From Pirellulales bacterium (lineage in GTDB: Bacteria > Planctomycetota > Planctomycetia > Pirellulales > PALSA-1355): a DNA stretch of 64,000 nt. The stretch is taken from NCBI GenBank assembly GCA_022844125.1, contig JALHMI010000017.1, positions 93,687-157,686 on the forward strand, in the 5' to 3' direction. Positions 2,423 to 50,960 of this stretch are shown here, in pieces. The number at the start of each line of letters is the position of its first letter. The stretch's first letter is position 1. Both the position numbers and the translations under genes were made by a program. The notes under the pieces were generated by a model. That model searched no databases and was not told where the DNA came from. It saw only the letters and a list, made by a program, of their open reading frames with translations.

Positions 2423-2456
2423 GGTTCTCCTTGAGTCGTGTCCAGGCAATTTGGAC

Positions 2457-3020
2457 TCAGTTGGTCGGCGGTTCGATCCCAAAGTCTTTGATCGTGAGCA
2501 AACTCGTGAACGAATAACCGCGCGCTTGGAACGCTTCGGCGCCGCCTTCCATCCGGTCGATGATACAAATCACCTGCTTCACCTTCAGTCCGGCCGCTTC
2601 CATTCGGTCGATCGCCAAGAGCGAGGATCCGCCGGTGGTCACGACATCTTCGACCACGACGATATCATCGCCCGGCTTGACGGGGCCTTCGATGAATTGC
2701 TGCGTGCCGTGCCCTTTGGCTTCCTTGCGTACCAGAATGCCCTTGAGCGGCACGCCGCGCACGCCGGCCATCGTGATCACCGCGGCCGTTATCGGATCGG
2801 CGCCAATCGCCATCCCACCTACAGCCACCGGGAGCTTGTCGCCTAGCAACTCCAAAATGCCCTCGCCAATCAACATTGCCCCGGCAGCGTCCAGCGTGAC
2901 CTGCTTGCCATCGAGGTAATACTTGGCTTTCTTGCCCGAGGCCAGCGTAAAGTCGCCAAACTTCAGGGCCTTTTCGCGAATCAGGTCGATCAGCTTCTGC
3001 TTGTCGTACACGCGGGTCAA
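2457..3020 (-). CDS. pyrE: Orotate phosphoribosyltransferase
   Basis: 187 aa. FGDFTLASGKKAKYYLDGK N-terminus and the PRPP-binding loop VVVEDVVTTGGS are typical of PyrE. Confidence 0.9.
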   Translation of the reverse strand: MTRVYDKQKLIDLIREKALKFGDFTLASGKKAKYYLDGKQVTLDAAGAMLIGEGILELLGDKLPVAVGGMAIGADPITAAVITMAGVRGVPLKGILVRKEAKGHGTQQFIEGPVKPGDDIVVVEDVVTTGGSSLLAIDRMEAAGLKVKQVICIIDRMEGGAEAFQARGYSFTSLLTIKDFGIEPPTN

Positions 3021-3189
3021 TCCTCACTCAAAAGTCAGGCGATTTTTCTGGCCCTATGGTAGCCGACCTGCCGCTGAGGGAAACAGGGCAAATCCCTGTC
3101 CAGCTGCGTGACACACGCCCGCGGCTGACTTACACTCGAGCTTCGGCCGAACAATCCTTCTGCTACGCTTTTCCTCTCGGGATCCCGCC

Positions 3190-4293
3190 ATGAAGTCGAC
3201 TCCTCCCGCCCTCGTAGTCGTCGCGCTGCTGCTTCTGCTGGCAGTCACTGCCCGAGCGGAACTGCCTGAGGACGTTCGCCGCCAGGTCGACCAGCGCGTG
3301 TCCATGTTCCTCGAGAAATCGGGAGCGCCGGGTATCTCCGTGGCGATTGGTGTCGATAACGAAGTCTGCTTCGAGCAGGGGTACGGCTTGGCCGATCTTG
3401 AAAACAAGGTGGCCGCCTCGGCCGAGTCGATCTATCGGTTGGCCTCGATCTCGAAGATGCTGACCGGCGTCGCGGTCTTGCAGCTCGTCGAAGCCGGCAA
3501 GCTCGATCTGGCCGCGCCGATTCGATCGTACGTGCCCGGCTATCCCGAGAAGCAAGCACCGATTACCTGCGATCTGCTGCTCAAGCATCAAAGTGGCATC
3601 CGTCACTACAAGGGTGACCTCGAGATTCGGAGCAACAAACATTACGCCCGGGTCCGCGATTCATTTGGCGTCTTTCAGGACGACCCGCTGCTGTTTGATC
3701 CCGGCACGCGATTCTCCTATACCACCTATGGATTCAATGTCCTTGGCGCGGCGATCGAAGGCGCCTCGGGTGAAGACTACGTTAGTTACGTCCAGAAGCA
3801 CATCGCCGAGCCTAGCGGCATGCGCACGCTGCAACCTGATAGTCCGTTTGCAGTCATTCCGCATCGCGCGGCTGGCTATCGCAAGCAGGGCAAGAAGTTG
3901 TTGAACGACTTCGCCGTTGACGTCTCCAACAAAATCCCCGGCGGCGGCTGGTGTTCGACGGCCGGCGACCTGGTTCGCTTTGCCGGCACGCTCAACTCGG
4001 GCAAGCTGCTCAGTGAGCAGTCGCTGGAAACGATGTGGACGCCACAGAAGACCACAGACGGTAAACAGACGAATGCGGGCTACGGCTGCTTCATCGATAA
4101 TGTGGACGACGACCGGCTGATCTCGCATTCTGGCGGTCAGCCGAAAGTGTCGACGTTTCTGGTCTTTTCGCCCGCGAAGAAAGTGGCCGTCGCCGTGATG
4201 TGCAACCTGCGCGAGAGCAACCCGAAGCCGCTGGCGATGGATCTGATTGGACTGGTCGGCGCCGAGTCGATGGAACCGGCAGCCGCTGAATAA
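3190..4293 (+). CDS. Serine hydrolase, beta-lactamase (class C-like) family, secreted
   Basis: Signal peptide MKSTPPALVVVALLLLLAVTARA. SxxK motif ASISK. Length and overall layout fit beta-lactamase-related esterases. Confidence 0.8.
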   Translation: MKSTPPALVVVALLLLLAVTARAELPEDVRRQVDQRVSMFLEKSGAPGISVAIGVDNEVCFEQGYGLADLENKVAASAESIYRLASISKMLTGVAVLQLVEAGKLDLAAPIRSYVPGYPEKQAPITCDLLLKHQSGIRHYKGDLEIRSNKHYARVRDSFGVFQDDPLLFDPGTRFSYTTYGFNVLGAAIEGASGEDYVSYVQKHIAEPSGMRTLQPDSPFAVIPHRAAGYRKQGKKLLNDFAVDVSNKIPGGGWCSTAGDLVRFAGTLNSGKLLSEQSLETMWTPQKTTDGKQTNAGYGCFIDNVDDDRLISHSGGQPKVSTFLVFSPAKKVAVAVMCNLRESNPKPLAMDLIGLVGAESMEPAAAE

Positions 4294-4306: not shown

Positions 4307-5851
4307 ATGTCGATGTTGCTCATAGTTCAATCAACTCGTGGCAGTATTCCCTCGCGGGTGCTTCCCATTGGTGTCTTGCTCGCACTACTCTGCCTTCCAA
4401 CTATCTCTCAGGCGGACGACTGGCCGCAATTCCGCGGGCCGAATAGCACGGGCATCGCCGCAGGAACGAAGCCGCTTCCCGTGAAGTTCTCGGCCTCCGA
4501 GAACCTCCGCTGGTCGGCGGAAGTCGGCGAAGGTATCGGTGGCGCGGCCGTTGCCGCGGGTCGCGTGTTCGTAAGCGGTATGACCAGCAGTGACACCGTC
4601 AGCCTGTTCGCCTTTGATGCAGCCACGGGCGAGAAGCTCTGGCAGCGTGACTGGCCAGCCGGCACGCTCGGCGAGGTTCATCAAATCAATAGTCATGCCA
4701 GCTCCACTCCCGCGGCCGACATCAACCGCGTGTACTTTTATTTCACGACGCTGGGACTCCTGGCCCTGGATGCCAAAACAGGCCAGGACGCCTGGCGGCA
4801 GCCGCTGCCTGTGCCGTTCTTCGTATTCAAGTGGGGCGCGGGTATGTCGCCCGTCGTTTATAAGGACATGGTGTTGTTCTGCCAGGACGACGATCTGAAT
4901 CCGGCCCTGTACGCCTTCGACAAAGAAATCGGCACGCTGCTCTGGAAGGACGATCGGCTCGACATGGCGGTCAACTATTCGCATCCGGTGATCAACACCG
5001 TCGATGGTCGCGATGAAATCGTCGTCGCCGGCACCGGCATGCTCATCGGGTACGATCCCCCGTCCGGCCATCGCCGTTGGTTTGCCAAGACGCTGCTCCG
5101 CAACATCAAGACCACGCCGGTGTGTGTGCATGGCAATATCTATGTCTCACTGCAAAGCAGCGGCATAGCGAATCAATGGCTGGCTGCGGTCGATCAGGCC
5201 GAGACCGGCAACAGTGACGGCAAGATCGACAAAGCCGAAATACAAGCCTATGTCGGTGAAGAACCCGTTCCGCCAGCATTCCTGGAGCGCGCCTTTGGTC
5301 GCGGCGACAGGAACGGCGACGGATTACTCGAAGGCGAAGAGCTCGATCTGGCGTTCATGCATCCCGATAACTTCTCCGGCGCGCGATACACCTCGACCGG
5401 CGAAAAAGCGGCCGATGAGTTCATCCTCGCGGTGCGCGGCGGCGGCTCGGGCGATGTCACCGCCTCGCACCTCATCTGGAAGCATGCGACGAAGCACACC
5501 GACCATGTCGTTTCTCCATTTGTTTCCGGCGGCCGAATGCTGCTCATCAAGTGCGGCGGCATCAGCACCGTGTTCGACACTGAAAGCGGCAAGCCCCTGC
5601 GCGGTCCGAAGCGGATTGCCGACGCCACCGACTACTTCGCTTCGCCCGTGGCCGGCGACGGCAAGATTTACGCAGCCGGTTCGAACGGCATGGTCGTCGT
5701 GCTCGCAGACAGTTTCGATCTCGCAGGCGGGGCCGACTACGAAGAGCTTGCCGTGAATGACGTCGGTGGCAGCATCGTGGCCACGCCGGCAATCGCGGAC
5801 GGAAAGCTGTTCGTTCGCACGCGCGAAAAACTGCTTTGCTTCGGCGAGTAG
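4307..5851 (+). CDS. PQQ-like beta-propeller repeat protein with EF-hand-like calcium loops
   Basis: ATG at 4307 followed by a signal peptide. DDWPQFRGPN start is typical of planctomycete PQQ-like/BamB-like propellers. DRNGDGLLEGEE and NSDGKIDKAE are EF-hand-like loops. Confidence 0.75.
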   Translation: MSMLLIVQSTRGSIPSRVLPIGVLLALLCLPTISQADDWPQFRGPNSTGIAAGTKPLPVKFSASENLRWSAEVGEGIGGAAVAAGRVFVSGMTSSDTVSLFAFDAATGEKLWQRDWPAGTLGEVHQINSHASSTPAADINRVYFYFTTLGLLALDAKTGQDAWRQPLPVPFFVFKWGAGMSPVVYKDMVLFCQDDDLNPALYAFDKEIGTLLWKDDRLDMAVNYSHPVINTVDGRDEIVVAGTGMLIGYDPPSGHRRWFAKTLLRNIKTTPVCVHGNIYVSLQSSGIANQWLAAVDQAETGNSDGKIDKAEIQAYVGEEPVPPAFLERAFGRGDRNGDGLLEGEELDLAFMHPDNFSGARYTSTGEKAADEFILAVRGGGSGDVTASHLIWKHATKHTDHVVSPFVSGGRMLLIKCGGISTVFDTESGKPLRGPKRIADATDYFASPVAGDGKIYAAGSNGMVVVLADSFDLAGGADYEELAVNDVGGSIVATPAIADGKLFVRTREKLLCFGE

Positions 5852-6016
5852 CTCACGACAGCAACCGGCGCGAAGCTACACAATCTCTGCCGATCGTGCC
5901 GCGGCACTGACCGCGTGACGGCTCTTGCGGTGATCCATCGTTCAGCCCGCGGGGTTCGCCGGTGGTATCCTTTTCTGGCCGCACGATCCTCCCGCCTTCC
6001 GTACCCGCCCACCCGC

Positions 6017-7738
6017 ATGACTAGCCAGTCGACATCCCAGCCGCCGCGCTGCGCGCCAGTCCTCGCGCGCCGGCTGGGATTGTTCCTGCTGTTCGCGGCC
6101 GTTGCCGGGTGCGGAGCCCATCGCAGTTCGCAGCTCGCAGTGCAGCCGGTTTCGGCCACCACGGTGACCGTGCAATCGGTCGCTCTGGTGACAGCCGATC
6201 CGCGTGCCGCGCAAGCAGCGCTCGACGAAGCTCGGCGGCTCGATCGGCGGAATGATCCGACCGCAGTCGACTACTACTTTCAAGCCGCGGCGCTCTCGGC
6301 CCAAGGCATCACGCCCGCAGGCCCGGCCAACCAAAGCGAATCGATCTATCGCCAGGCGCTGTGGGGACTTGTCGACTCGGGCCAGCGGCTCGGCCGGCTC
6401 GACCCGCGCTCCGGGCTCACGGTGATGCACGGCGGGCAGCGCACGATTCCGATTCGTTACTTCGGTTTTGCGTTCAAGCCGAGCGACTTCAGCCGGCTGT
6501 CGGCTGCGGACGTGCCGACCGGTGAGATCGCGCAGCGGTACGTGCGGCCCGGCATCGGCATTCCGCTGCTTGGCGAGCGCGTCTCGCCGTGCGAGGAACC
6601 GTTCGCTTCGCCGTGGCAACCGTTTGCCGTGACCGCCTTGCTCCGGCCATCGGGCGACGTGGTCGATCCGACGTTTTCGGGACCGTACGTTCTGGAACTG
6701 TACAACCCACTCGCGTTCGATTGCGTTGGCTGGCGTGGTGGATCGCGGCCACTCTCGGCCGACATCACCGCGCCGCTGGCGGCCATCGTGAACAGCGCGC
6801 CGCGACAGTACCTGCAAGGGTTCACCGCCCCCAGCGACGTTTCGGTGCGGCCGAAGCTGACGATGATCGAACCGTATCAGCCCGGCAAGATTCCGGTCGT
6901 GTTCATCCACGGCTTGTACTCCGACGCGATCACCTGGGCCGACATGATCAACGAGCTGCGCGCCCAGCGCGACCTTTACGACCAATACCAGTTCTGGGCT
7001 TTTCGCTATCCGACCGGCGGCGACCTCTTGGCCAGCACGTCCGCGCTCCGCGCCAACTTGCGGCTGGTGCGCACCACGTTCGATCCAAACGGGGCCGATC
7101 CGGCCCTGGACCAGATGGTGCTCGTCGGCCATAGCCTGGGTGGTCTGGTCTCCAAAATGCAAGTCACCTCGTCATACGAGATTCTGTGGCGGGCGGCCGC
7201 CGTGCAACCGTTCGATGCCCTGCAAGCGCCGCCCGAACTGGAAGAGCAACTCGCTCGCGGGTTCTTCTTCGATCCAGTCTGCTCGGTGAAGCGGGTGGTG
7301 TTCATCGGCACGCCGCATCACGGCAGCGGACTGGCCAGCCGCGCAGCAGGTCGAGTCGGCAGCCTGCTGGTCAGCTTCGGCAGGGAGCAGGACGCCCAGT
7401 ACCAGGCACTGATGGAGGCGAATCGCGACGTCTTCAAGCCGCACTTACAAGGCCGGCGGCCGACGACGATCGCGCTCTTGGAGCCCGAGAATCCCTTTCT
7501 CGACGCCCTCAAGCGGATGCCGGTCAACTGCCAGACGCGGCTGCACTCGATCATCGGCACGGGCGGGCTGAATCTCACGGAAGGTCCCAGCGATGGCATT
7601 GTGCCGGTAGCCAGCGCCGAGCACGCGGGCGACAGCACGCTCGAAGTGCCGGAGCATCACGAGCGACTGCATCGTCATCCGGACTCGATCGCCGAGGTGA
7701 CGCGGATCCTGCGGCTGCACGCGGCAGGAGTCCGGTGA
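6017..7738 (+). CDS. Alpha/beta hydrolase (lipase/esterase-like) lipoprotein
   Basis: Internal ATG at 6017 gives a lipobox (LLFAAVAGCG). Nucleophile elbow GHSLGG. The C-terminal part resembles PGAP1/lipase-like hydrolases. Confidence 0.7.
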   Translation: MTSQSTSQPPRCAPVLARRLGLFLLFAAVAGCGAHRSSQLAVQPVSATTVTVQSVALVTADPRAAQAALDEARRLDRRNDPTAVDYYFQAAALSAQGITPAGPANQSESIYRQALWGLVDSGQRLGRLDPRSGLTVMHGGQRTIPIRYFGFAFKPSDFSRLSAADVPTGEIAQRYVRPGIGIPLLGERVSPCEEPFASPWQPFAVTALLRPSGDVVDPTFSGPYVLELYNPLAFDCVGWRGGSRPLSADITAPLAAIVNSAPRQYLQGFTAPSDVSVRPKLTMIEPYQPGKIPVVFIHGLYSDAITWADMINELRAQRDLYDQYQFWAFRYPTGGDLLASTSALRANLRLVRTTFDPNGADPALDQMVLVGHSLGGLVSKMQVTSSYEILWRAAAVQPFDALQAPPELEEQLARGFFFDPVCSVKRVVFIGTPHHGSGLASRAAGRVGSLLVSFGREQDAQYQALMEANRDVFKPHLQGRRPTTIALLEPENPFLDALKRMPVNCQTRLHSIIGTGGLNLTEGPSDGIVPVASAEHAGDSTLEVPEHHERLHRHPDSIAEVTRILRLHAAGVR

Positions 7739-10715: not shown

Positions 10716-10890
10716 GAGGGGCCTCTTCGAGTGGAGTGGGCGGCTACTTTTCAAATGATAGCAGAATGTTGGGTGGCTTGGTTGCGACGCTGGCTGGGAC
10801 CTTGGGTTCCACGCTTGCTGTGCAACAGTCACCCGTGCTGCTGGCGGTCGAGCGTGTCTCGTACGGCGGGGCATTTGTGAAGCGAAGCGA

Positions 10891-10999
10891 GCACAGGTGA
10901 GCCGCAACGCGGCCACCTGTGGCACCCGAGAGTTGGCGATCGGGACGCGTGACTTGAGCCCTCCTGTGCTGCGCACACCGACAACGAGTTGTCGGTGCT
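10891..10999. repeat. REP-like hairpin (GCACAGGTGAGCCGCAACGCGGCCACCTGTGGCACC) followed by copy 1 of a repeat ending in the hairpin CACCGACAACGAGTTGTCGGTG
   Basis: Read directly. The 10919-10999 part recurs at 11163-11254. The REP-like hairpin recurs at 22048-22084 (inverted) and 22151-22183. Confidence 0.65.
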
Positions 11000-11162
11000 A
11001 GCCGGCTGAGACGTTGATGATCTGTGAACTTGTTGGCCCGGGGAAGGAAGTGCCGCCCCTCCGGGGCTTCGGACGAAGAAGAGAGTTGATGAAAGGTCGA
11101 TTCGGTTTCCCGGGGGTTTCCACCCCCGGCTATTGACGTGCGCCCCTCCGGGGCTAAATGCA

Positions 11163-11254
11163 GTGGCACCCAAGCGCAACTCGGGCTCGCGGATGGGTAA
11201 CGCGTGACCTAAGCTCTCCTGTGCTTCGCACACCGACAACGAGTTGTCGGTGCT
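11163..11254. repeat. Copy 2 of the GTGGCACCC ... CTCCTGTGCTNCGCACACCGACAACGAGTTGTCGGTGCT repeat
   Basis: The 39-nt 3' part is identical to 10961-10999 apart from one base. The 5' part is looser. Confidence 0.65.
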
Positions 11255-11308
11255 TCCCGGTGGTTTTTCGGTTAGATGAGATTGGGTGGTCTGGTTGCGA
11301 CCGTGGGA

Positions 11309-11446
11309 GCCACTGCTGGCTTGCCCAGCAGTGCTCTTCACTGATCTTGCCTTGCACTTGTCGCACTCAATAAACACACCGTCAGGAAGCGGATACTGCA
11401 AGGCAAGATCAAAAAGGCAGACACTGCTGGGCAAGCCAGCAGTGGC
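11309..11446. repeat. Long nested hairpin: 25-bp perfect outer stem plus 14-bp inner stem
   Basis: GCCACTGCTGGCTTGCCCAGCAGTG (11309-11333) pairs with 11422-11446. GATCTTGCCTTGCA (11343-11356) pairs with 11397-11410. It lies just 3' of the ATPase gene stop at 11480. Confidence 0.7.
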
Positions 11447-11479
11447 ACCCAAACGAAGGGCACCCGAAGGAACTCTGAA

Positions 11480-22047: not shown

Positions 22048-22084
22048 CGGGTGCCACAGATGGCCGCGTGGCGGCTCACCGGTG
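22048..22084. repeat. REP-like hairpin, inverted copy of 10891-10927
   Basis: GGGTGCCACAGATGGCCGCGTGGCGGCTCACCGGTGC is the reverse complement of the 10.9-kb copy with a few mismatches. Confidence 0.6.
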
Positions 22085-22150
22085 CTTTTTGGGAATCGCT
22101 TGATATTCCAACAGACTATGCGGAGAGCGCCAGTTGCCACCGGAGAGACT

Positions 22151-42274: not shown

Positions 42275-43243
42275 TTAGAGCGATCGCCTTCGCCGTCGGG
42301 CGACGAATATTGCGAGTAAGCCAAAGGAGGTCAACAGGCAGGTCGAGGGCTCAGGGACGAACGCCAAGCGGAAGCCAACACCGTCAATCTGGGTTGTCGG
42401 GTTGCCTTCGACCCAGTTCGAAGACTGCAAGTAGTCCAACCCGTTGCCGAACGAACCGCCCCGCACGGCACGAAATGACAAGCCGATGAGCTTTTCGTTC
42501 CACTCCCACACATTGCCGCCCTGGTCGAACGTGCCATAGTAGCTGTCTGAACCCGTGTAGGCACCGCCGATTGTCAAATCACCGACAACAGATAATTCAT
42601 AGTTGGCCGCGTTGCTGCCGCCGGGAGGAGCCTCGGCGGTCGGGGCCATATTACTGGCGGTCGGATAGAGCCAATAGTCGTCCGCATCACCACCTTGCGA
42701 GGCCGGCTGATGATAGGCCGCCTTATACCACTCGTCCTCGCTGGGCAGAAACCATGTCGCGCCGGTGTTGCGCTTAATGCTCCCGCCGTTGCTGGGCGTG
42801 GGCGTGCCGCCCAACAGGGTATACGCGCCGGTCTCCGTATCGCCCGATCCTTGGCCATTGTTCATCCAGTTGGCAAAGCGGATGGCGTCGTACCAGCTCA
42901 CATAGTTGACCGGCATGTTCTCCCGGCCGCTGATTGGCGCGTAGCTGTAGCTGCCGCTGGAGCCGCTACGAGTGATTCCGCCGTAGCCGCTACTCATGTT
43001 CGTGTTGTAGAGGGCTAGCGGATCGCTGGCGGCCTTGGCGTTGAGTAATGCTGCATACTGTGCGTTGGTGACTTCGGTCGTGCCGATGCGATAGTCGTAG
43101 CTGACCGCGCCGTACAGACCACCAGTCGATGGGTCAGGCGCGTTCCCCGCATTTCCAATCGGAACGGTGGGGATCGTGACAGCACATGCCGACTTGGCGG
43201 CAAGCAACAAGCCAAACAGACTCAGGACTGCGATGCGAATCAA
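42275..43243 (-). CDS. FGE-sulfatase (SUMF1/EgtB/PvdO) domain protein with a PEP-CTERM anchor
   Basis: Signal peptide. NVWEWNE and RGGSF motifs of the formylglycine-generating-enzyme fold. C-terminal VPEPSTCLL...RRRRR is PEP-CTERM. Confidence 0.75.
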   Translation of the reverse strand: MIRIAVLSLFGLLLAAKSACAVTIPTVPIGNAGNAPDPSTGGLYGAVSYDYRIGTTEVTNAQYAALLNAKAASDPLALYNTNMSSGYGGITRSGSSGSYSYAPISGRENMPVNYVSWYDAIRFANWMNNGQGSGDTETGAYTLLGGTPTPSNGGSIKRNTGATWFLPSEDEWYKAAYHQPASQGGDADDYWLYPTASNMAPTAEAPPGGSNAANYELSVVGDLTIGGAYTGSDSYYGTFDQGGNVWEWNEKLIGLSFRAVRGGSFGNGLDYLQSSNWVEGNPTTQIDGVGFRLAFVPEPSTCLLTSFGLLAIFVARRRRRSL

Positions 43244-43802
43244 TGGTCGAGCCCTCGACGCACAATGGGGGTAAAAAACAAACGCCGCTCAAATGCAAAC
43301 CCAGGTGCGCGAAGAGCGACAACCATGAGAAGGCAAATGAGCGACGTTTCAGTAGCGGACTTTGGCAAATGCTTTACGGAAGTAAAACTACCCACACATT
43401 ATAGGTTGCCGGGGGGGCAACCATTCCGCACGAGAAATCACAGCGGGTAGCACCGACAACTGCCGGTGTTGCGCAGCAACCGGAGGGCTCAAGCAGAGCG
43501 TCACGGTGTGGCAGGCATGACGGCAGAGTTCGCTCCGTCCTGAACCCTCTCGTGCCGGAGGCACCCTGACAAGCTGTCAGGGCCACCCGGGGTCGACGTC
43601 CCGCTCGATGTGTTATCAGTCGCAACGAAGCGCGAGCGACGCCTGCATTCCAGCGAACGTGCCTGTTGGTGGCCGTTTTCGCAAAAAGAAAAACGGCCAG
43701 TAGAAAACAGGCCAGTGTCTGTGCTAACTTCGCCTCAGACAACCTAATCCGTTGGGTATCAAGTAGAGCCCGCCGACACCATGCGGCCGGGTATCCGCAG
43801 GA

Positions 43803-43846
43803 GCCCGCTTCCGAAGCAATTTCGGCAGCGGGCTTTTTTCGTTTTT
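43803..43846 (+). terminator. Strong rho-independent terminator or attenuator immediately upstream of the toxin-locus RBS
   Basis: GCCCGC..CCGAA GCAAT TTCGG..GCGGGC followed by TTTTTTCGTTTTT. GGAGG at 43847 and ATG at 43859. Confidence 0.65.
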
Positions 43847-43858
43847 GGAGGTGACTGT

Positions 43859-44617
43859 ATGGCACGCGATGAATTGGATCCGCTTGACGATGAGCTGAGG
43901 CCGGAACCTGAAGTCGCCCCAGTACTTCCCGAAGAGACAGCGTTCAACGTCAGGGAAGCAGTCGAAGCGCCCACTGAAGTGGACGATGTCGAGCAAAACG
44001 CCAGCGGACCGGTGGTCTTCGAACAGGCAAGCGTCGAATCGGAGGGAGTCGTGCCTGCCGCTGCTGAATCAGAATCCCAGGACGTGCAAGCGGCACCCAA
44101 CCCCTACGACAACTTTGACAACCAGAAGGCGGTCGAGCGATTCTTCGAGGCGTACCGAGCCCAGCGGGCGGCCGAGCGCGCCGCGTCAGGTGAGAGCGAA
44201 GACGAAATGTTGCCGGCAGACGCTCCGCTGCGCCGCAAGGATGGTTTCTTCTACGCGGAACCTCGCAAGCTGCCGCCCCCGACGCCGTTTGAAGAACTGG
44301 TGTTTGGCTACAGCAAGAAACGCTCGCCGGAACCGACACCGGAGATTCAAGAGCGGTGGCTTCCGCCCGACTTTCTGCCCAAGGGTCCGCGATCGCAGCC
44401 GATCGGCGCCGCCGTTCCTGCGCCCGAGGGGGAAATCAAGGTGACCGTCGAGGTGCGGCTCACGGGCGAAGCGCGCGAGCGGATCACTGACCAGGCAATC
44501 GCCAAGGCAGCGCAGACCCACCAGAACCAGACCGAGATCGTCGCCAAGCGGCTCTATGAACTGACGCGTGAAATCCGCGATCGGGAAGCCGCACGTCGCG
44601 TTCTCTATCGGCGGTGA
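43859..44617 (+). CDS. Hypothetical acidic, Pro-rich protein (first gene of the toxin locus)
   Basis: ATG at 43859 after GGAGG. 252 aa. Its stop lies 4 nt before the toxin gene ATG. No family recognised. Confidence 0.55.
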   Translation: MARDELDPLDDELRPEPEVAPVLPEETAFNVREAVEAPTEVDDVEQNASGPVVFEQASVESEGVVPAAAESESQDVQAAPNPYDNFDNQKAVERFFEAYRAQRAAERAASGESEDEMLPADAPLRRKDGFFYAEPRKLPPPTPFEELVFGYSKKRSPEPTPEIQERWLPPDFLPKGPRSQPIGAAVPAPEGEIKVTVEVRLTGEARERITDQAIAKAAQTHQNQTEIVAKRLYELTREIRDREAARRVLYRR

Positions 44618-44621
44618 GCCC

Positions 44622-46073
44622 ATGATCTCGATCGATCCCCAGGCATCGCTCAAGTATTTCCGCACAATCGCGTCGCACACCGACCGCGATGTTCAGCGGC
44701 GGCTGGATCGCTTTCAGCGGTCGCTGGAGAGGTGGCTGCACAGTGCGCTTAACTGGCCGCAGGACGATTGGGAGTCCGACTTGCGCATGTTCGTCGAGCA
44801 CACGCGTTATGCGGGTTGGGAGATCTCACCGCATTCGCTGGCCAAGATTCGCGAGTTGCTGGAAGCGCGGGCGAAGCGGGCGGGGCCGTTCGCGGTGGCA
44901 ACTGGCGCGCGGAGCCACGAAGCCGACAAGCCAGAAATCCAGCTTGCCGCCGTGATGGCGCCCGGCGAAGACACGGACGCCACGCTGGACCTGACGAGCG
45001 AGGACGCGGAGCAAGTTGAAGAGTCAGTTGATCTGGAGGTGGCAGGTGAGGGGCCGGAGGTGTCGGAGTCGTTCAAGGCGAAGGTAAGGCTGACGCTTGA
45101 ATTACTCGATCCTGCTGTTTGTCGTTGGTGGCATGCGCCGAGCGTCGACGGGTTGATTCAGTCGCGCGATGCATGGGGGCCCCGACGTAATGTGATGAGC
45201 TACGTCGAAAATGACCGCCCGATCATTGTCGTCGACCAGAGCTTTACGGCGGGCGACACGGCGCTCGCGATTATCGACGAGGCGAGCTCGGGCCTGTTTG
45301 CGGATTCGATCGGCGCGCATTTGCGGAAGTACAAGATCGGTCGCGGGCGGAGTGTCGAGGAGTTCATTGCCTGGCGTAAGCAGTCAGCGCAGGAAGCCGC
45401 TGCTGAAGCAGCAAAGATTGCAGAGATCTACTACGGCGCGCTGGCATCGCTAACCCCTGCCGGCGAACTGGTCGTCACGCTCGACGACATCGATCGCAAT
45501 GGCGTGAGCTTGAGTCATGCGCTGATTCTGCTGCCAGGGATGGCCCTGCTCCGCGGACAAATCAAAGGGTTTGTTCTGAAGATCGCTGGCGGAAAGCCGC
45601 TCAGAGTATCTGAAGAATTGTTGAATAAGCTAAGCAAGTTGCCGAAAGCAACTCTGGAGAATCTGGTTGCCAAAGTTCGGAAGGCGAAGACCCCGGAAAA
45701 GGGCATCAAGATACTGCGGGATGGAGTCGAGGCTGCTGCAACTGAGCGTCGCTCTAGGAGTGCTACTGGCGCGGCCAAGGCGACCGCTCGCAAAGGGGGC
45801 CAGGTTCACCATGCAATCTCGGTACGAGTCCATAGAGCGTTGGAAAAACACAAGAGACTAAAGGGTAAATATAAGCCCCGCGACAAACGATTCGAGTATC
45901 AGGCCGTTAGCCTTGAGGCACATAATGGTTATGAGCACTGGCACATCGACCTTGATGCCGAGGTTGTAGAATGGCTTCGTGAAAATCAGGACGCAACAAC
46001 GGAAGTATTTGAAGGGTGGCTCGCCAAAAGATATAGGAAGCCCGACCTTGCTTGGCGGTTTAAAAGTAAATGA
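44622..46073 (+). CDS. Polymorphic toxin-like protein with a C-terminal HNH/EndoVII-fold (AHH-like) nuclease domain
   Basis: ATG at 44622. The central region (YYGALASLTPAGELVVTLDDIDRNGVSLSHALILLPG...) is repeated at 47957. The variable C-terminus carries QVHHAIS ... EAHNGYEHWH. Confidence 0.6.
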   Translation: MISIDPQASLKYFRTIASHTDRDVQRRLDRFQRSLERWLHSALNWPQDDWESDLRMFVEHTRYAGWEISPHSLAKIRELLEARAKRAGPFAVATGARSHEADKPEIQLAAVMAPGEDTDATLDLTSEDAEQVEESVDLEVAGEGPEVSESFKAKVRLTLELLDPAVCRWWHAPSVDGLIQSRDAWGPRRNVMSYVENDRPIIVVDQSFTAGDTALAIIDEASSGLFADSIGAHLRKYKIGRGRSVEEFIAWRKQSAQEAAAEAAKIAEIYYGALASLTPAGELVVTLDDIDRNGVSLSHALILLPGMALLRGQIKGFVLKIAGGKPLRVSEELLNKLSKLPKATLENLVAKVRKAKTPEKGIKILRDGVEAAATERRSRSATGAAKATARKGGQVHHAISVRVHRALEKHKRLKGKYKPRDKRFEYQAVSLEAHNGYEHWHIDLDAEVVEWLRENQDATTEVFEGWLAKRYRKPDLAWRFKSK

Positions 46074-46086
46074 AAGGGTTCAAGAG

Positions 46087-47106
46087 GTGACTTTCTACAC
46101 CATCAAACAGTCAGACGATCACTCAGCGCTCACATATGCGTACGAATACAAAGCAGTGATGGGCGACGCGGAATCCTGTGAATTCTGCGGAGCATGCATC
46201 AGCCTTCTGACTTGGCAGCCACCGTTCCGCGTCGAACTCGAGATGATCGGCCGAGAGTTCTCCGACATCATCTTCGACATTGGCAACGGCCTGCTTTTGT
46301 CAGAACGAACCGTGCATTTGTGCCGCGATAATCGTCTGACAGGGTTAAAGGAGATCCATCCGGTCGAAGTCGTGAAGGTCAGATCTCGCTGGCGAAAGCG
46401 GCCCGAGCCCCCTAGATACTTTTATGCGCCGATCCAGCGGGGGCCGGCACGCGTTGACGTGGCTGCCTCGGGGATCGTGTGGCTTGCGCCGCCTGCTTGC
46501 CAACATTGCCTCGGCGCCAACAAAATGCGCTGGCAACGAGTCCAGTTGGAACCGAATACCTGGGGAGGCGAAGACATTTTTGCACCCATCGGCTTGTCCG
46601 GAACGATGATTATTTCGCCGCGGTTCAAGCAGATCTGTCAGCAGCACGAGCTGAAGAATGTCATGACGCTTCCGATCGAACAAGACTCTCACGATTTCTA
46701 TCCAGGGGTTAAGGACGGCAAGGAGTGGGCGCAGATTGTTGCGGAAGATAATGCGCCGCCGCCTGCCGACGACCAGGAAGCCCTGCATAGACTCGCCAAG
46801 GTCGCGCGGCTCGACATCGAACAGCTAATCACGCACTATTTGCACCTGCCCACCAAACGCGCTGCGAAGCGGGCACATATCGCCTTGTCCGCTCGCGACT
46901 TCGAAGTAGACGAGCCTTACAAGTTCTTTGCGAAATGGGGATTGCGAGTCCACACACGGCTCATCCCCGAGGAATCCGCCATCATCGAGCTCCGCCAGAT
47001 GTTCACCGAGATTGCCGAGGAGAACGACGGTACCTACGACCGCTGGGAAGCTGATCTCCGCACCGAAGAGCAGCGGGCACATGATCGCCAACGCGGCGGA
47101 TGGTAA
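46087..47106 (+). CDS. Putative immunity protein: double-CxxC(G) domain fused to an RraB-like domain
   Basis: In-frame GTG at 46087 (MTFYTIKQ). CEFCG and CQHCLG motifs resemble the myxobacterial double-CXXCG paralog family. The C-terminal THYLHLP...FTEIAEENDGTYDRWE resembles the RraB/DUF695 fold. Confidence 0.5.
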   Translation: MTFYTIKQSDDHSALTYAYEYKAVMGDAESCEFCGACISLLTWQPPFRVELEMIGREFSDIIFDIGNGLLLSERTVHLCRDNRLTGLKEIHPVEVVKVRSRWRKRPEPPRYFYAPIQRGPARVDVAASGIVWLAPPACQHCLGANKMRWQRVQLEPNTWGGEDIFAPIGLSGTMIISPRFKQICQQHELKNVMTLPIEQDSHDFYPGVKDGKEWAQIVAEDNAPPPADDQEALHRLAKVARLDIEQLITHYLHLPTKRAAKRAHIALSARDFEVDEPYKFFAKWGLRVHTRLIPEESAIIELRQMFTEIAEENDGTYDRWEADLRTEEQRAHDRQRGGW

Positions 47107-47113
47107 AACGACA

Positions 47114-47462
47114 ATGCCTGACGATCGGGATGCAATTGATGCGCTCGGCACCGTCGCTCGACTCGACATCGAGCATGAAATCACTCACTTCTTGCATATG
47201 CCCACAGAGGATGCCGCGGAGCGAGTGAGAATCGCACTGACCGCGCGAGATTTCGTAGTCGATGACGTCTGGCTGATCTTCGGTACGTGGTGCGTCACGG
47301 TGCGCACCATACTTGTCCCTGAGGAATCCGCGATTGTCGAGCTGCGTCGTATCTTTACCGAGATCGCCGAAGAGAACGACGGCGAGTACGACGGCTGGGA
47401 AGGCCGATCTGCGCACGGAAGAACAAAAGGCCGAAGATCGTCGCAATGGCGGGATAGGTTGA
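47114..47462 (+). pseudogene. Second RraB-like domain gene, with an apparent 1-nt insertion near 47400
   Basis: MPDDRDAIDALGTVARLDIEHEITHFLHMP...EIAEENDGEYDGWE is paralogous to 46790-47106. Homology to the ADLRTEEQ... tail continues only in the +1 frame, ending at TGA 47460-47462. The unshifted frame runs on to 47650, antisense to the PNP fragment. Confidence 0.5.
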
Positions 47463-47472
47463 CCCGCCTGCG

Positions 47473-47958
47473 TCACAACCCCGCCACGATCCCGCGGATG
47501 ATCGCGCGGACTTTGGGGGCGGCGGTCGTGGCGACGTGCTCGACTTCGCTCGATTTGGCGCCGGACAGCGCTTCGGGACGGCATTCGTTGGTCACGACCG
47601 AGAGCGCCAGCACGCGCAGGCCGCATTGCCGGGCGGCGATCACCTCGTGAACCGTCGACATCCCGACGGCGTCCGCGCCCAGGCGGCGGAGCATCCGGTA
47701 TTCGGCGCGGGTTTCGTAGTTCGGGCCGAGGACGCCGACGTACACGCCGCGGTGAGCCACGAAGTCTTCGCGACGAGCAATGGTCGCTGCGGCATCAAGC
47801 AGCTCGGCGTCGAATAGCCGGCTCATGTCGGGGCAGCGGGTACCCAGCGAATCGTCGTGCTGGCCGATCAAGGGGCCGTCGAACGTGAAGTTGATCTGAT
47901 CTTCGACCAGCATCAGATCGCCGACGCGATAGTGGGGATTCATCCCGCCGCAAGCGTT
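47473..47958 (-). pseudogene. Duplicated 3' fragment (about 160 codons) of the purine nucleoside phosphorylase gene
   Basis: Near-identical nucleotide copy of about 49294-49779 including the stop region. It ends abruptly at ...GCAAGCGTT, where toxin homology begins. Confidence 0.85.
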
Positions 47959-48580
47959 GTACTACGGCACGCTGGCCTCGCTGGCACCAGGTGGCGACCT
48001 GGTCGTCACGCTCGACGACATTGATCGCAATGGCGTGAGCTTGAGTCATGCGCTCGTTCTGCTACCGGCGCTGGCCAGTCTTGGCAGAAGGGGGACTGGG
48101 CTCGTCCTACAGATTACTGGGGGAAGAGCTTTTCGGGTACCGAAGGAGTTACTCGAGAAGCTTGTCAAGTTGCCCAAAAAGGCTCTGGACAAACTAGCCG
48201 CGAAGGTTCGGCATGCAAAGACCCCAGAAGAAGCCATCGATATACTCGATGGTCACGTTAAGCGGGTACACGGGCACCATATCGCCACCGACAAAAACTG
48301 GGTATCACCGCTACGTGGCGGTCCTTGGTCGCCGCGATTCGCAGAGATTTTTGAACGCGCGGGCATGACACTGACGGATGCAGAGAACGTTGTCAAGCTT
48401 CCTGGACATAAAGGTCCACATTCAGAGCAATACCACAGGCGAATCTACACCCTTCTTAAGACCGCTACAGATGGCAAGCGGGGGGCGACGTACAAGAAGG
48501 CGCTGGTAGACGAGTTGAAGCGAATTGCTAAAGAAGTTAAGACGAAAGGAACGGAGCTCAACCGGCTTCTATTCGAGTAA
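47957..48580 (+). CDS. Orphan polymorphic-toxin C-terminal cassette (AHH-type HNH/EndoVII nuclease)
   Basis: Begins, with no ATG, exactly at the conserved YYGTLASLAPGGDLVVTLDDIDRNGVSLSHAL segment. The C-terminus has GHHIATDKN ... LPGHKGPHSEQYH, an AHH-like motif pair. Confidence 0.6.
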   Translation: MYYGTLASLAPGGDLVVTLDDIDRNGVSLSHALVLLPALASLGRRGTGLVLQITGGRAFRVPKELLEKLVKLPKKALDKLAAKVRHAKTPEEAIDILDGHVKRVHGHHIATDKNWVSPLRGGPWSPRFAEIFERAGMTLTDAENVVKLPGHKGPHSEQYHRRIYTLLKTATDGKRGATYKKALVDELKRIAKEVKTKGTELNRLLFE

Positions 48581-48585
48581 CGATC

Positions 48586-49161
48586 ATGTCGGAATATATG
48601 AAATACTTTGAGGTGCAAGAGGAGTTGACGCTCCACGCCGACCAATGGTTTCTCAGGCGTCCGAGATCCGCAACTGGCGAGGTGCTGTACCCAGACGAAT
48701 TCACTGTGGGAGTGCCGTACACTGGTCCCGTTCCAGTGACATTGGAGATTGGACAGAAGGGCAAGGAGGTGCAGTTCCATCTAGCGGCCTTCAGTATGCC
48801 GGTCGTTTCACGAAAGATCGCGAATATTATTCGTAGCATCGCTCCCGGTCATGCAGAGTTCTTCCCCGTCGACATCGTTGGAGCTGAAAACAAATACGAA
48901 ATCATGAATGTCACTTGTCTTATAGACAGCCTGGACGAGGACAAGTCGGATTTTACAGTTTGGAAAGAAGAAGACGGACGACCTGACTTAGTCGGCCAGT
49001 ACCAAATGATTTTACAGGCACGCATTGACGGTAGCCGAGCGGCGCGGCATCCAATCTTCAGGCTGTCAAAGTTCAGCGTATCCTTGTTTGTCTCCGAGCA
49101 GATTCAGCAGGAACTTGAAGATAGGCCCAATCTGGGGGTCAAGTTCATTGATGCTAGCTAG
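48586..49161 (+). CDS. Imm11/DUF1629-like immunity protein
   Basis: 191 aa, 5 nt after the orphan toxin stop. The layout (PVVSRKIANIIRSIAPGHAEFFPVDI ... YEIMNV ... IFRLSKFSVSLFVSEQIQQELE) fits the DUF1629 pattern. Confidence 0.55.
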   Translation: MSEYMKYFEVQEELTLHADQWFLRRPRSATGEVLYPDEFTVGVPYTGPVPVTLEIGQKGKEVQFHLAAFSMPVVSRKIANIIRSIAPGHAEFFPVDIVGAENKYEIMNVTCLIDSLDEDKSDFTVWKEEDGRPDLVGQYQMILQARIDGSRAARHPIFRLSKFSVSLFVSEQIQQELEDRPNLGVKFIDAS

Positions 49162-49293
49162 ACGCGACCCGGTTCGAAATACGAGCCTTGGATCTCAGTT
49201 GATACCGACTAAGGTTGGTGAAATTGGAAGATCGACAGAGCCTTAGAGAGAGATTCTTCCCGCAACCTGAGTCCACATGCGTAGCGAGTGTGA

Positions 49294-50115
49294 TCACTCC
49301 CCTGCCACAATCCCGCGGATAATCGCGCGGACTTTGGGAGCGGCGGTGGTCGCGACGTGCTCGACTTCGCTCGATTTTGCGCCGGACAGCGCTTCGGGAC
49401 GGCATTCGTTGGTCACGACCGAGAGCGCCAGCACGCGCAGGCCGCATTGCCGGGCGGCGATCACTTCGTGAACGGTCGACATCCCGACGGCGTCGGCGCC
49501 CAGGCGGCGAAACATCCGGTACTCAGCCCGCGTTTCGTAATTTGGTCCGAGCACGCCGACGTACACGCCGCGGTGAGCCACGAAGTCTTCGCGACGAGCA
49601 ATGGTCGCGGCGGCATCAAGTAGCTCGCGATCGAAAGGACGGCTCATGTCGGGGCAGCGGGTACCCAGCGAGTCATCGTGCTGACCAATCAAGGGGCCGT
49701 CGAACGTGAAGTTGATCTGATCTTCGACCAGCATCAGATCGCCGACGCGATAGTCGGGATTCATCCCGCCGCAAGCGTTCGAAATGATCATGGACTTGAC
49801 GCCGAGCTCGCACAGCACGCGCACCGGGAAGGCGATCTGCGCGGCCGAGTGCCCCTCGTAGCCGTGACAGCGGCCGGCCATCGCCACGATCGGCACGCCC
49901 GCGATGCGACCGAGAATCAGCAGCCCGCGATGCGTGGGCGCGGTCGGCGCGACGAAGCCAGGAATCTCTTCGTACGGCAGCTCGAGCAGCGACTCGATTT
50001 CGTGCGCGAAGTCGGAAAGGCCGGTGCCGAGAATGATCCCCACGCGCGGACGCGGATGCCCGTGAGCCCCGATGGCTGCGGCGGCGCGCTCGACCTGCTG
50101 GCTGATCGAATCCAT
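49294..50115 (-). CDS. Purine nucleoside phosphorylase (PunA/trimeric PNP family)
   Basis: 273 aa. GIILGTGLS, HRGLLILGRIAGVPIVAMAGRCHGYEGH, NACGGMNP and MSTVHEVIAARQCGL are PNP-I family motifs. Confidence 0.85.
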   Translation of the reverse strand: MDSISQQVERAAAAIGAHGHPRPRVGIILGTGLSDFAHEIESLLELPYEEIPGFVAPTAPTHRGLLILGRIAGVPIVAMAGRCHGYEGHSAAQIAFPVRVLCELGVKSMIISNACGGMNPDYRVGDLMLVEDQINFTFDGPLIGQHDDSLGTRCPDMSRPFDRELLDAAATIARREDFVAHRGVYVGVLGPNYETRAEYRMFRRLGADAVGMSTVHEVIAARQCGLRVLALSVVTNECRPEALSGAKSSEVEHVATTAAPKVRAIIRGIVAGE

Positions 50116-50129
50116 ACGCGAGCCGGCGT

Positions 50130-50960
50130 TTAGGTGGCGAAGTCGGCCAGAATGCCCAGGATGATCTTGCGCAGCTTGGGCTCGGCCTCGTTCGCGGTGG
50201 CGATGATCTCAGCGACGTCGACCGGCTTGAGCGCGTCGGGAAAACAGATGTCCGTAACGATCGAGAGTCCCAGCACGCGCAGGCCGGCATGCACGGCGAC
50301 CAGCACCTCGGGTACGGTCGACATGCCCACGGCGTCCGCGCCGATCAGACGCAGGAAGCGATACTCGGCCCGGGTCTCCAGGTTCGGCCCCTGCACGGCG
50401 ACGAACACGCCTTTGTGCGCGGGGAAGTCCTCGCGGCGGGCGATCGCTTGCGCCCGGTCGATCAGCTCGGGATCGTATGGCCGGGCCATGTCCGGGAAGC
50501 GGGGACCGAGGCGGTCGTCGTTGATGCCGACCAGCGGATTGCTCCCCATCAGGTTGATGTGGTCGTCGATGACCATGATGTCGCCGCAGGCGAAGTTGGG
50601 GTTCATGCCCCCGCAGGCGTTGGTGACGATCAGCAACTCGCAGCCGAGGGCCTTCATCACGCGCACCGGCAGCGTGATCGCGTCGAGCGGGTAGCCTTCG
50701 TAGGCGTGGAAGCGACCTTCCATGGCCATCACGCTGGCGCCGTTGAGCTTGCCGCAGACCAGGCGGCCTTTGTGGCCCGTGGCGGTGGGCTTGAGGAAGT
50801 GCGGGATCGCGGCGTAATCGATCGAGGTCTCCACTTCGATCTTTTCAGCCAGCGGTCCGATGCCGGTGCCGAGGATGATGCCGACGCGCGGCCTCGCGCC
50901 GGGCCACTGACCGCGGATGGCGGCGGCGGCGGCTTCGATTTGATCGTAGAGGTGCAGCAT
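50130..50960 (-). CDS. Purine nucleoside phosphorylase paralog
   Basis: 276 aa. Same motif set (GIILGTGIG, HKGRLVCGKLNGASVMAMEGRFHAYEGY, NACGGMNP, MSTVPEVLVAVHAGL). Confidence 0.85.
   Translation of the reverse strand: MLHLYDQIEAAAAAIRGQWPGARPRVGIILGTGIGPLAEKIEVETSIDYAAIPHFLKPTATGHKGRLVCGKLNGASVMAMEGRFHAYEGYPLDAITLPVRVMKALGCELLIVTNACGGMNPNFACGDIMVIDDHINLMGSNPLVGINDDRLGPRFPDMARPYDPELIDRAQAIARREDFPAHKGVFVAVQGPNLETRAEYRFLRLIGADAVGMSTVPEVLVAVHAGLRVLGLSIVTDICFPDALKPVDVAEIIATANEAEPKLRKIILGILADFAT

Follow-up and report, generated by a model that had tools for sequence, protein, structure and literature searches.

Displaced toxin tips and immunity genes that trail a full-length toxin gene have been described as Rhs C-terminal displacement arrays (Jackson et al. 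2009, PMC2935791), as orphan cdiA-CT/cdiI and rhs-CT/rhsI modules (Poole et al. 2011, PMC3150448), and as the orphan immunity arrays of the Vibrio cholerae type VI secretion system (T6SS), in which an incoming module displaces the effector, and the resident immunity gene is kept; for these, Kirchberger et al. (2017, PMC5361080) suggest homology-facilitated illegitimate recombination anchored on the upstream side. Here we describe a comparable array in a 64,000-nucleotide (nt) stretch of the genome of a Pirellulales bacterium (assembly GCA_022844125.1, contig JALHMI010000017.1, positions 93,687 to 157,686; hereafter the window). In this array, a polymorphic toxin gene and its immunity gene are followed by a 3' fragment of the neighbouring purine nucleoside phosphorylase (PNP) gene, an orphan toxin cassette with a second immunity gene, and the intact PNP gene (Table 1). 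We give a probability of roughly 85% to the general picture that the locus arose by displacement with DNA from an orthologous locus together with one illegitimate join. The locus works like the orphan tip/immunity arrays of the Rhs, contact-dependent inhibition (CDI) and Vibrio T6SS systems, and it is a good example of a known process rather than of a new principle. What is new is the host group (Planctomycetota), the small Pirellulales-type toxin family with its obligatory upstream partner, a scar readable to the base that includes a fragment of a housekeeping gene, and the fact that both parental alleles and a second, independent junction were recovered.

Like the Rhs arrays, the locus has a full-length gene whose core is conserved and whose tip varies, followed by a unit made up of a dissociated core fragment, an alternative tip and an immunity gene. 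The tips are likewise old, exchangeable and lower in G+C, and the core fragment of the orphan offers homology for later recombination. Unlike Rhs proteins, the window toxin has 483 amino acids (aa), lacks YD repeats and a PAAR/VgrG context, and has an N-terminal region that matched neither a Pfam family nor a solved fold. A further difference is that a stretch of the housekeeping gene PNP, which lies downstream, stands between the new unit and the displaced one, and this PNP piece points to an orthologous chromosomal locus as the donor, not to an episomal tip pool or a genomic island. The Vibrio arrays differ in host and toxin family, and no T6SS genes are evident at the window locus, where, in place of a recognisable secretion system, only a conserved upstream partner gene is linked to the toxin; in addition, the window orphan keeps a complete toxin tip, its junction is resolved to the base, and both parental alleles have been recovered.

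The orphan cdiA-CT/cdiI and rhs-CT/rhsI modules, which were reportedly also treated by Koskiniemi and colleagues in 2014, resemble the window orphan in that the latter appears to be a promoterless tip/immunity pair downstream of the main gene that keeps a conserved pre-toxin stretch. By the same analogy, its immunity gene is probably functional, and recombination between the repeats could re-arm the orphan. Unlike CDI and rhs modules, the window has neither the VENN nor the PxxxxDPxGL demarcation motif, and the conserved stretch of about 100 codons starts from a YYG...DDI.RNG motif. The array can also be compared to a Campbell-type merodiploid, with two tandem alleles that share a left (pre-toxin) and a right (PNP 3') arm and that a deletion can resolve to either. 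This analogy is one of topology only. The array has no vector backbone, and an illegitimate junction links its arms directly.

Repeats, junction and orphan cassette

To describe the locus, open reading frames were called in the window and their identities were taken from Pfam profile searches; sister metagenomic loci, designated L0xx, were reached through the contigs of toxin homologues, and the homologous proteins themselves are designated P00xx. Self-comparison with blastn aligned 47479-47958 with 49299-49779 (93.4%, E=0) and 45429-45545 with 47960-48076 (86.3%, E~3e-32), the latter pair continuing more weakly at 45635-45715 and 48166-48246 (74%). A separate repeat finder recovered both pairs, with spacings of 1821 and 2531 nt. 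In a global alignment of the PNP pieces (47473-47958 against 49294-49779, 486 nt each) there are 35 substitutions and no indels, giving 92.8% identity; the fragment begins precisely at codon 113 and extends through the stop codon. The first-pass annotation had described a copy of the PNP 3' end of about 485 nt (47473-47958, against about 49294-49779) with scattered substitutions only, adjoining toxin sequence that matches from about 45428, and had proposed a pairwise comparison as a check on whether the similarity was weaker than it appeared. Both repeat pairs are evident in these comparisons, the similarity is not weaker than claimed, and all of its coordinates are correct within a few bases. 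Its order of elements also holds: a toxin N-terminal region, then pre-toxin, tip1, imm1 and a PNP 3' piece, then pre-toxin, tip2, imm2 and the PNP 3' part, and finally the rest of PNP. Its account of the first cassette was right as to tip1, imm1 and the PNP piece but overlooked an additional small RraB-only gene.

A three-way alignment shows PNP identity ending at 47958 and toxin identity beginning at 47959/47960, which places the switch between 47958 and 47959, where the copy had been said to adjoin toxin sequence. The junction string is CCGCCGCAAGCGTTGTACTACGGCAC; there is at most 1 nt of microhomology (the T at 47958) and no filler, and an in-frame TTG codon is formed at the junction. Across the equivalent position, the full-length AHH-type toxin of L010 reads GAGAT and then GTACTACGGCACGCTGGCCTCGCT. 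The G at 47959 matches neither partner within the window, yet it is templated, because the AHH-type allele of L010 carries that base. The idea that this G is untemplated filler creating a TTG start was considered and ruled out, as the AHH-type allele has ATG-TAC-TAC there. In the assembled sequence, the junction thus reads as a sharp and clean non-homologous join.

Past the junction, the unit at 47959-49161 fits, on its gene content, an orphan cassette: a partial conserved region, a complete tip and an immunity gene, without an N-terminal region. The first-pass annotation had called it an orphan toxin cassette, and the absence of the N-terminal region together with intact AHH and Imm11 genes agrees with this. 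The open reading frame at 47957-48580 matches the AHH family (Pfam PF14412, E=6e-18), lacks the first ~269 toxin codons and contains no internal stop. Its pre-toxin part is 89% identical in protein sequence to the full-length toxin of L010, against which the orphan toxin has an omega of 0.14; a homologue search with the orphan frame returned no identical protein and nothing closer than 64% identity. The protein encoded by imm2 is 92% identical to the Imm11 of L016 and 76% identical to that of L010, with omega values of 0.27 and 0.05, respectively. The AHH tip is found on a full-length toxin at the same chromosomal site in L010 (P0007, 475 aa) and in L016. In a scan for sigma-70 promoters and terminators, no promoter-like site preceded the orphan, although sites overall were no more frequent than in shuffled sequence and the consensus is uninformative for Planctomycetes. 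The integrity of the orphan nuclease tip and of Imm11 is consistent with immunity being kept against kin that use AHH.

Table 1. Coordinates of the features of the toxin locus in the window
Feature	Position	Strand	Description
Upstream partner gene	43781..44617	+	278 aa in the window, ~246 aa in sister loci; upstream of the toxin and spaced 4 nt from it in all sister loci
Full-length polymorphic toxin	44622..46073	+	483 aa; identical to database protein P0001
Toxin, conserved N-terminal region	44622-45425	+	
Toxin, pre-toxin region	45426 to ~45790	+	
Toxin, variable tip1	~45791-46073	+	
imm1	46087..47106	+	339 aa; Imm11-like N-terminal part and RraB-like C-terminal domain; cassette 1 immunity gene
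RraB-only small gene	47117..47462	+	Pfam RraB E=2e-13; diverged copy of the imm1 3' third
PNP 3' fragment	47473..47958	-	Codons 113-273 and stop; pseudogene piece travelling with cassette 1
Illegitimate junction	47958..47959	.	PNP (codon 113 boundary) fused to an AHH-type toxin at the G of the Met codon that precedes YYG
Orphan toxin cassette	47959..48580	+	~100 codons of pre-toxin (AHH-linked allelic type) and intact AHH HNH/EndoVII nuclease tip
imm2	48586..49161	+	Intact Imm11-family immunity gene paired with the AHH tip; Pfam Imm11 PF07791 E=9e-13
Intact PNP	49294..50115	-	Full-length PNP_UDP_1 E=9e-55; 3' 486 nt (49294-49779) are the partner of the fragment
Second PNP paralogue	50130..50960	-	~52% aa identity to the first PNP; conserved right flank; 91-98% identical to L001

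Parental alleles and divergence of the copies

The homologue contigs present seven distinct arrangements of one chromosomal site, which lies between an ABC transporter operon and a pair of PNP genes. The order is REase-5 / Imm52 (/ g159) / PNP in L001 and L002-L007, AHH / Imm11 / PNP with a full-length toxin in L010, tip1-type / RraB-immunity / PNP in L008/L009, and tip1 / imm1 / RraB-only / PNP as a single cassette in L017. Positions 45391-47958 of the window are colinear with L017 2138-4712 (83.6%), and the alignment ends exactly at the junction; past the equivalent point, L017 continues into an intact PNP. On the other side, 47958-49103 aligns with L010 2262-3407 (80%), 49294-50955 aligns with the L010 PNP pair (90%), and 47960-49444 aligns with the first layer of L016 (86%). 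Judged from these alignments, both single-cassette "parents" exist, tip1-imm1-PNP in L017 and L008 and AHH-Imm11-PNP in L010. The colinearity with L017, together with L010, supports well the earlier proposal that the incoming DNA came from a locus with toxin-immunity-PNP synteny.

A second array was found in L016, which comes from a different metagenome. It starts with toxN-AHH-Imm11, followed by a 150-nt PNP 3' fragment (3521-3670) that is 90% identical to the PNP of the same genome; this first layer (2194-3670) is 86% identical to the window orphan unit plus the start of PNP. The fragment is joined sharply to the middle of an Imm52 gene, with a junction microhomology of ~3 nt (GTC), and the order past the junction is the 3' part of Imm52, g159, an RraB-only gene, an Imm11-like 5' fragment, a 3' piece of a REase-5 tip, Imm52, a frameshifted g159 and PNP. 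Differences from that genome's PNP reach up to 12-15 nt from the junction, and this divergence leaves no room for a homologous crossover there. So far as the two sequences tell, there have been at least two additions of a cassette carrying a PNP piece, and their break points differ. L016 3521-6760 is itself a multi-layer orphan array, in which a 368-nt direct repeat (3837-4204 and 5976-6339, 96.5%) flanks the middle layers.

The copies in the window might be explained by a segmental duplication in situ with mutational divergence only and no foreign DNA. In favour of this explanation, a tree of the 486-nt segment groups the two PNP copies as sisters, closer to each other (92.8% identity) than to any other lineage (at most 85.4%). 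The nature of the differences, however, speaks against it. By the Nei-Gojobori method, the PNP pieces differ by 28 synonymous and 7 non-synonymous changes (dS 0.27, dN 0.020, omega 0.07); decay of one copy after duplication in situ predicts ~61% non-synonymous changes, under which 7 or fewer of 35 (that is, 80% synonymous) has P ~1e-6. When sites were polarised with five orthologues, 16 synonymous and 2 non-synonymous changes fell on the branch of the intact PNP, as compared to 8 synonymous and 6 non-synonymous changes on the branch of the fragment, and pure duplication does not account for the 16 synonymous derived changes on the intact copy. Moreover, the two units share no homology in their tips or immunity genes, and a toxin alignment assigns the two pre-toxin copies to different allelic types, each of which is found in other genomes. 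We reject this explanation and leave it virtually no probability.

These patterns indicate that the PNP divergence is mostly allelic and accrued in functional genes. A minority, very roughly 8 substitutions by a hand estimate, looks like later pseudogene decay; four amino-acid replacements on the fragment branch fall at residues that are invariant in all orthologues, and decay on this branch suggests that the structure has existed for some time. Because the PNP differences are mainly synonymous and the pre-toxin allelic types differ, at least one copy derives from the functional genes of another lineage. The inserted DNA is read as foreign because the tips are non-homologous, the PNP differences are mainly synonymous and the left unit is colinear with L017. 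Both window copies also share a hypervariable PNP patch (49594-49694; 47773-47873 in the fragment) that diverges by 35-40% of nt from all sister orthologues, with flanks that are 87-98% identical, and that reads DGPLIGQHDDSLGTRCP as compared to ASPLVG.IDES.GPHFT; this patch may be an imported tract. Its presence in both copies and their sister position on the tree place donor and recipient in the same narrow lineage.

The differences between the PNP copies are not evenly spread. Counted from the junction, nt 1-92 contain 1 difference in 92 nt (13-15 in other orthologues), nt 93-315 contain 25 in 223 (42-65), nt 316-401 contain none in 86 (7-9) and nt 402-486 contain 9 in 85 (5-21). Under uniform divergence, the deficit in the junction-proximal 92 nt has P=0.002 for third positions and P=0.005 for all sites. 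The sole difference in this tract is non-synonymous and lies on the branch of the fragment, where it is probably later decay. Identical runs reach 86, 67 and 56 nt in the PNP repeats and 32 and 23 nt in the pre-toxin repeats. The toxN region is also a mosaic, being L002/L010-like at 44196-44443 (90-98%) and L001-like at 44443-45640, and no breakpoint in it can be assigned to the array event. Mosaics at the PNP 3' end and in the toxin 5' region would fit the use of both as homology arms in ordinary cassette swapping. The array as assembled is formally a merodiploid of two alleles: a deletion between the PNP repeats would leave a tip1-only locus with a hybrid intact PNP, and a deletion between the pre-toxin repeats would re-arm the AHH tip. 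In the adjoining partner gene, the N-terminal part (43900-44050) is poorly conserved, with ~45-50% nt identity among sister loci; this part and the segment 44196-44443, where affinity shifts from L001 to L002/L010, are recombination mosaics that lie upstream of the toxin.

Routes to the array

Three published routes fit the topology of the locus equally: homology-facilitated illegitimate recombination, a circular intermediate and tandem duplication. The view that the locus documents the mechanism of displacement holds for the involvement of orthologous-locus DNA and of one join, but not for the choice of route. Our tentative preference is homology-facilitated illegitimate recombination in one step, which we regard as plausible without being probable. 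The ancestor would have been a single-cassette locus with the partner gene, an AHH-tip toxin, Imm11 and PNP, as in L010, into which DNA from the orthologous locus of a closely related strain, with tip1, imm1, the RraB gene and PNP as in L017, would have entered. On the left side, homologous recombination would have taken place in the conserved toxin 5' region; on the right side, the incoming end, broken 486 nt into PNP, would have been joined without homology to the resident toxin at Met-Tyr-Tyr-Gly. As a result, the full-length toxin would carry tip1, and the resident pre-toxin/AHH/Imm11 unit would have lost its first ~269 codons and its promoter to become a silent orphan. Imm11 would stay intact, and protection against AHH-armed siblings is the likely selective reason why an additive event was kept over a clean replacement. 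We infer the one-step route, this selective rationale and the direction of the event; tip1 as incoming and AHH as resident is the conventional reading.

Several observations weigh against this account. A wholly foreign fragment would not be expected to match the intact copy almost perfectly over the 92 nt beside the junction; this tract needs a mosaic conspecific donor, later gene conversion or a tandem duplication, and the second identity tract at nt 316-401 suggests the patchiness of gene conversion. Joints from experimental homology-facilitated illegitimate recombination usually use about 3-10 nt of microhomology, as compared to the 1 nt at most that is found here, and an incoming end with 486 nt of homology would normally recombine homologously. 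The sequence does not reveal the direction: if a circle had integrated through a crossover in PNP, the newcomer would be the AHH unit. Furthermore, none of the recovered loci is a sister strain of >95% identity that would show the state before the event. The route put forward in the first-pass annotation deals with the first of these points. An illegitimate tandem duplication in situ, from the YYG position to mid-PNP, would have produced two identical AHH-Imm11-PNP' units, and the interior of the first would then have been replaced by a double crossover with tip1-imm1-PNP DNA, the right crossover lying ~92 nt from the junction. In its favour, both end-points of the junction lie in one locus, in the expected order and orientation, the 92 nt by the junction match the resident PNP except for one change that is probably later decay, and the divergent rest of the fragment, with its mainly synonymous changes, looks imported. 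Tandem duplication has also been proposed as a means of rearranging cdiA/rhs orphans without loss of immunity (PMC3150448). This route, however, requires two rare successive events. Tandem copies that are identical are expected to be unstable as long as they have not diversified. In addition, the second identity tract (0/86) lies within the supposedly imported part, a patchiness without a crossover boundary, and the L016 fragment is diverged to within 12-15 nt of its own junction. Of this earlier proposal, the head-to-tail junction stands and the 92-nt near-identity mildly favours it, but the duplication itself is not established, as the copies (92.8% and 86%) are not recent paralogues, their divergence carries the imprint of selection and the interiors are non-homologous. 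We consider it possible but rather unlikely, and the one-step route is slightly favoured over it because a single event is needed and L016 fits better.

The independent L016 junction also fits a circular intermediate better than it fits tandem duplication. Following the published circle model for rhs tips (Jackson et al., PMC2935791), a circle that was closed at the junction and carried a pre-toxin region, a tip, an immunity gene and a PNP 3' piece would have been excised between direct repeats of an existing array, transferred, and integrated by a Campbell-type crossover in pre-toxin or PNP, so that the window would be a merodiploid. Two successive blocks of pre-toxin, tip, immunity gene and PNP 3' piece, linked by the junction, are exactly the topology that a single-crossover cointegrate has. 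Identical runs of 86, 67 and 56 nt and of 32 and 23 nt are probably long enough for RecA-dependent excision and integration. This route nevertheless shifts the origin of the junction to an earlier genome and leaves the join itself unexplained; the same junction is seen nowhere else among the recovered loci, that of L016 being different, the 92-nt identity tract is not predicted, and there is no evidence of circles. These points make the circle improbable. Less credible still is an assembly artefact, in which co-existing strains with a tip1 cassette and with an AHH cassette would have been stitched in tandem. The relatives are metagenomic sequences or metagenome-assembled genomes (MAGs), the window may be a MAG too, and both single-cassette alleles occur in nature. 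The two sides of the junction share no k-mer, however, given the homology of at most 1 nt, so that a switch of graph path cannot create the join; with no shared sequence there, junction-spanning reads, or a chimeric read, must underlie the assembly. The four fragment-specific replacements at invariant residues are what a real pseudogene ageing at this site would show, and an analogous but different PNP-fragment junction occurs in the independent metagenome L016. An artefact is in our view very improbable.

Toxin family and gene neighbourhood

In an alignment of the toxin homologues, ~390 N-terminal residues are conserved and are followed by non-homologous C-termini (AHH, Tox-REase-5 and tip1). 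Tips pair with immunity genes as AHH/Imm11, REase-5/Imm52 and tip1/Imm11-like-RraB in the window and seven sister loci; Tox-REase-5 (PF15648) is found on sister-locus toxins, and the tip1 type, with the motifs HHAIS...AHNGYEHWH, is also found on P0011, a protein with a YD-shell/Rhs-type domain (PF25023). Because it combines a conserved N-terminal region with alternative recognised toxin tips and an immunity gene of its own directly downstream, the toxin has, by its predicted architecture, the structure that defines a polymorphic toxin system (sensu Zhang et al. 2012). The pairing of Imm11 with Tox-AHH, planctomycetes included, has already been catalogued (PMC3482391). Neither toxN nor tip1 gave a usable Pfam match at E<=10, toxN showing only a noise-level DUF match. 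An AlphaFold2 model of the full toxin reached a pLDDT of 64 and a pTM of 0.31, and a Foldseek search against the PDB returned nothing below E=1.

The toxin family is small and accounts for 79 clusters (50% identity) in a set of 1.84 billion representative proteins. Scanning genome contigs with the toxN alignment found only two distant loci (40% identity), both in one Pirellulales MAG and without PNP synteny, and scanning metagenomes found only the loci already recovered and one short contig. Many family members in the representative library (for example, P0073, P0080, P0082 and P0055) are N-terminally truncated, starting at or just before the YYG/...LA.L.P.GDLVVT motif and continuing into tip1-type, REase-5 or AHH tips; orphan cassettes that start near the YYG motif may be common in the family. 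The upstream partner gene has no Pfam match, and tblastn found it also upstream of distant toxN homologues in L011, L012 and L015 (37-39% identity).

Within the first cassette, imm1 starts 13 nt past the toxin stop, as it does in L008, where the gene directly 3' of the tip1-type toxin is 82% identical to imm1; its Pfam matches are RraB (E=2e-10) and, weakly, Imm11 (E=0.03). An internal repeat (46964-47069 and 47316-47422, 80% in the blastn self-comparison) ties imm1 to the RraB-only gene. Since it is present in the single-cassette L017, at about 3862-4207, the RraB-only gene is part of the tip1 cassette, and the same order of imm1, RraB-only and PNP in L017 rules out that it is the remnant of a third, older cassette; L016 has a stand-alone copy of 138 aa at 4685-5101. 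The gene may serve as an accessory immunity gene, or it may be a remnant that became fixed long ago. In both the window and L016, it starts 2-3 nt past the stop of the preceding gene (imm1 and g159, respectively), and its C-terminal tail is out of frame with respect to the homologous end of imm1. The open reading frame of the PNP fragment, 47473-47943 on the minus strand, matches PNP_UDP_1 (E=2e-35) over profile positions 82-232 only. In L001, L002, L008, L010, L016 and L017, the PNP that follows the toxin locus is an orthologue of the intact PNP. Its tandem paralogue is kept with it as a pair in all sister loci, and an extra gene stands downstream of the pair in L001 (Metallophos) and L016, where the window has none.

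The G+C content of the cassettes is 47-59%, as compared to 62-69% in the flanks, and the locus holds no integrase or transposase, be it in the window or in the sister loci. Between the ABC permease and the partner gene, the window has a 322-aa gene (42275-43243, minus strand) with an FGE-sulfatase domain and a PEP-CTERM/VPDSG-CTERM anchor, where L001, L002, L010, L016 and L017 have only a short spacer; this gene appears to be a lineage-specific insertion adjoining the toxin locus. Farther away, an Acido-Lenti-1 small RNA motif (RF01687, 44.5 bits) lies at 11110-11155 inside a cluster of short repeats (10890-11460). This cluster includes 10945-10999 and 11200-11254 (93%), the inverted pair 11304-11356 and 11397-11451, and the likewise inverted pair 10890-10928 and 22048-22086.

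What the locus means for the toxin family

One further reading goes beyond the displacement itself. The locus may preserve the initial event by which an array is seeded, for which the rhs circle model does not account; in it, one illegitimate toxin/PNP join gives a merodiploid that resolves by simple deletion to either allele or sheds circles of 1.8 or 2.5 kb, with the PNP 3' end as the regular right-hand recombination arm and the toxin as a planctomycete-restricted class with an obligatory upstream partner. We regard this as doubtful; if true, circles would spread cassettes through the population. For the toxin family, it follows from the general displacement picture that the source of new tips is the orthologous chromosomal locus in related strains and not mobile elements, and that the additive step is a non-homologous join. 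Orphan arrays are common, but their founding junctions are usually erased or uninformative, and it is for this reason that the three mechanisms remain proposals. The locus is thus a useful natural experiment on the mechanism by which such arrays form.

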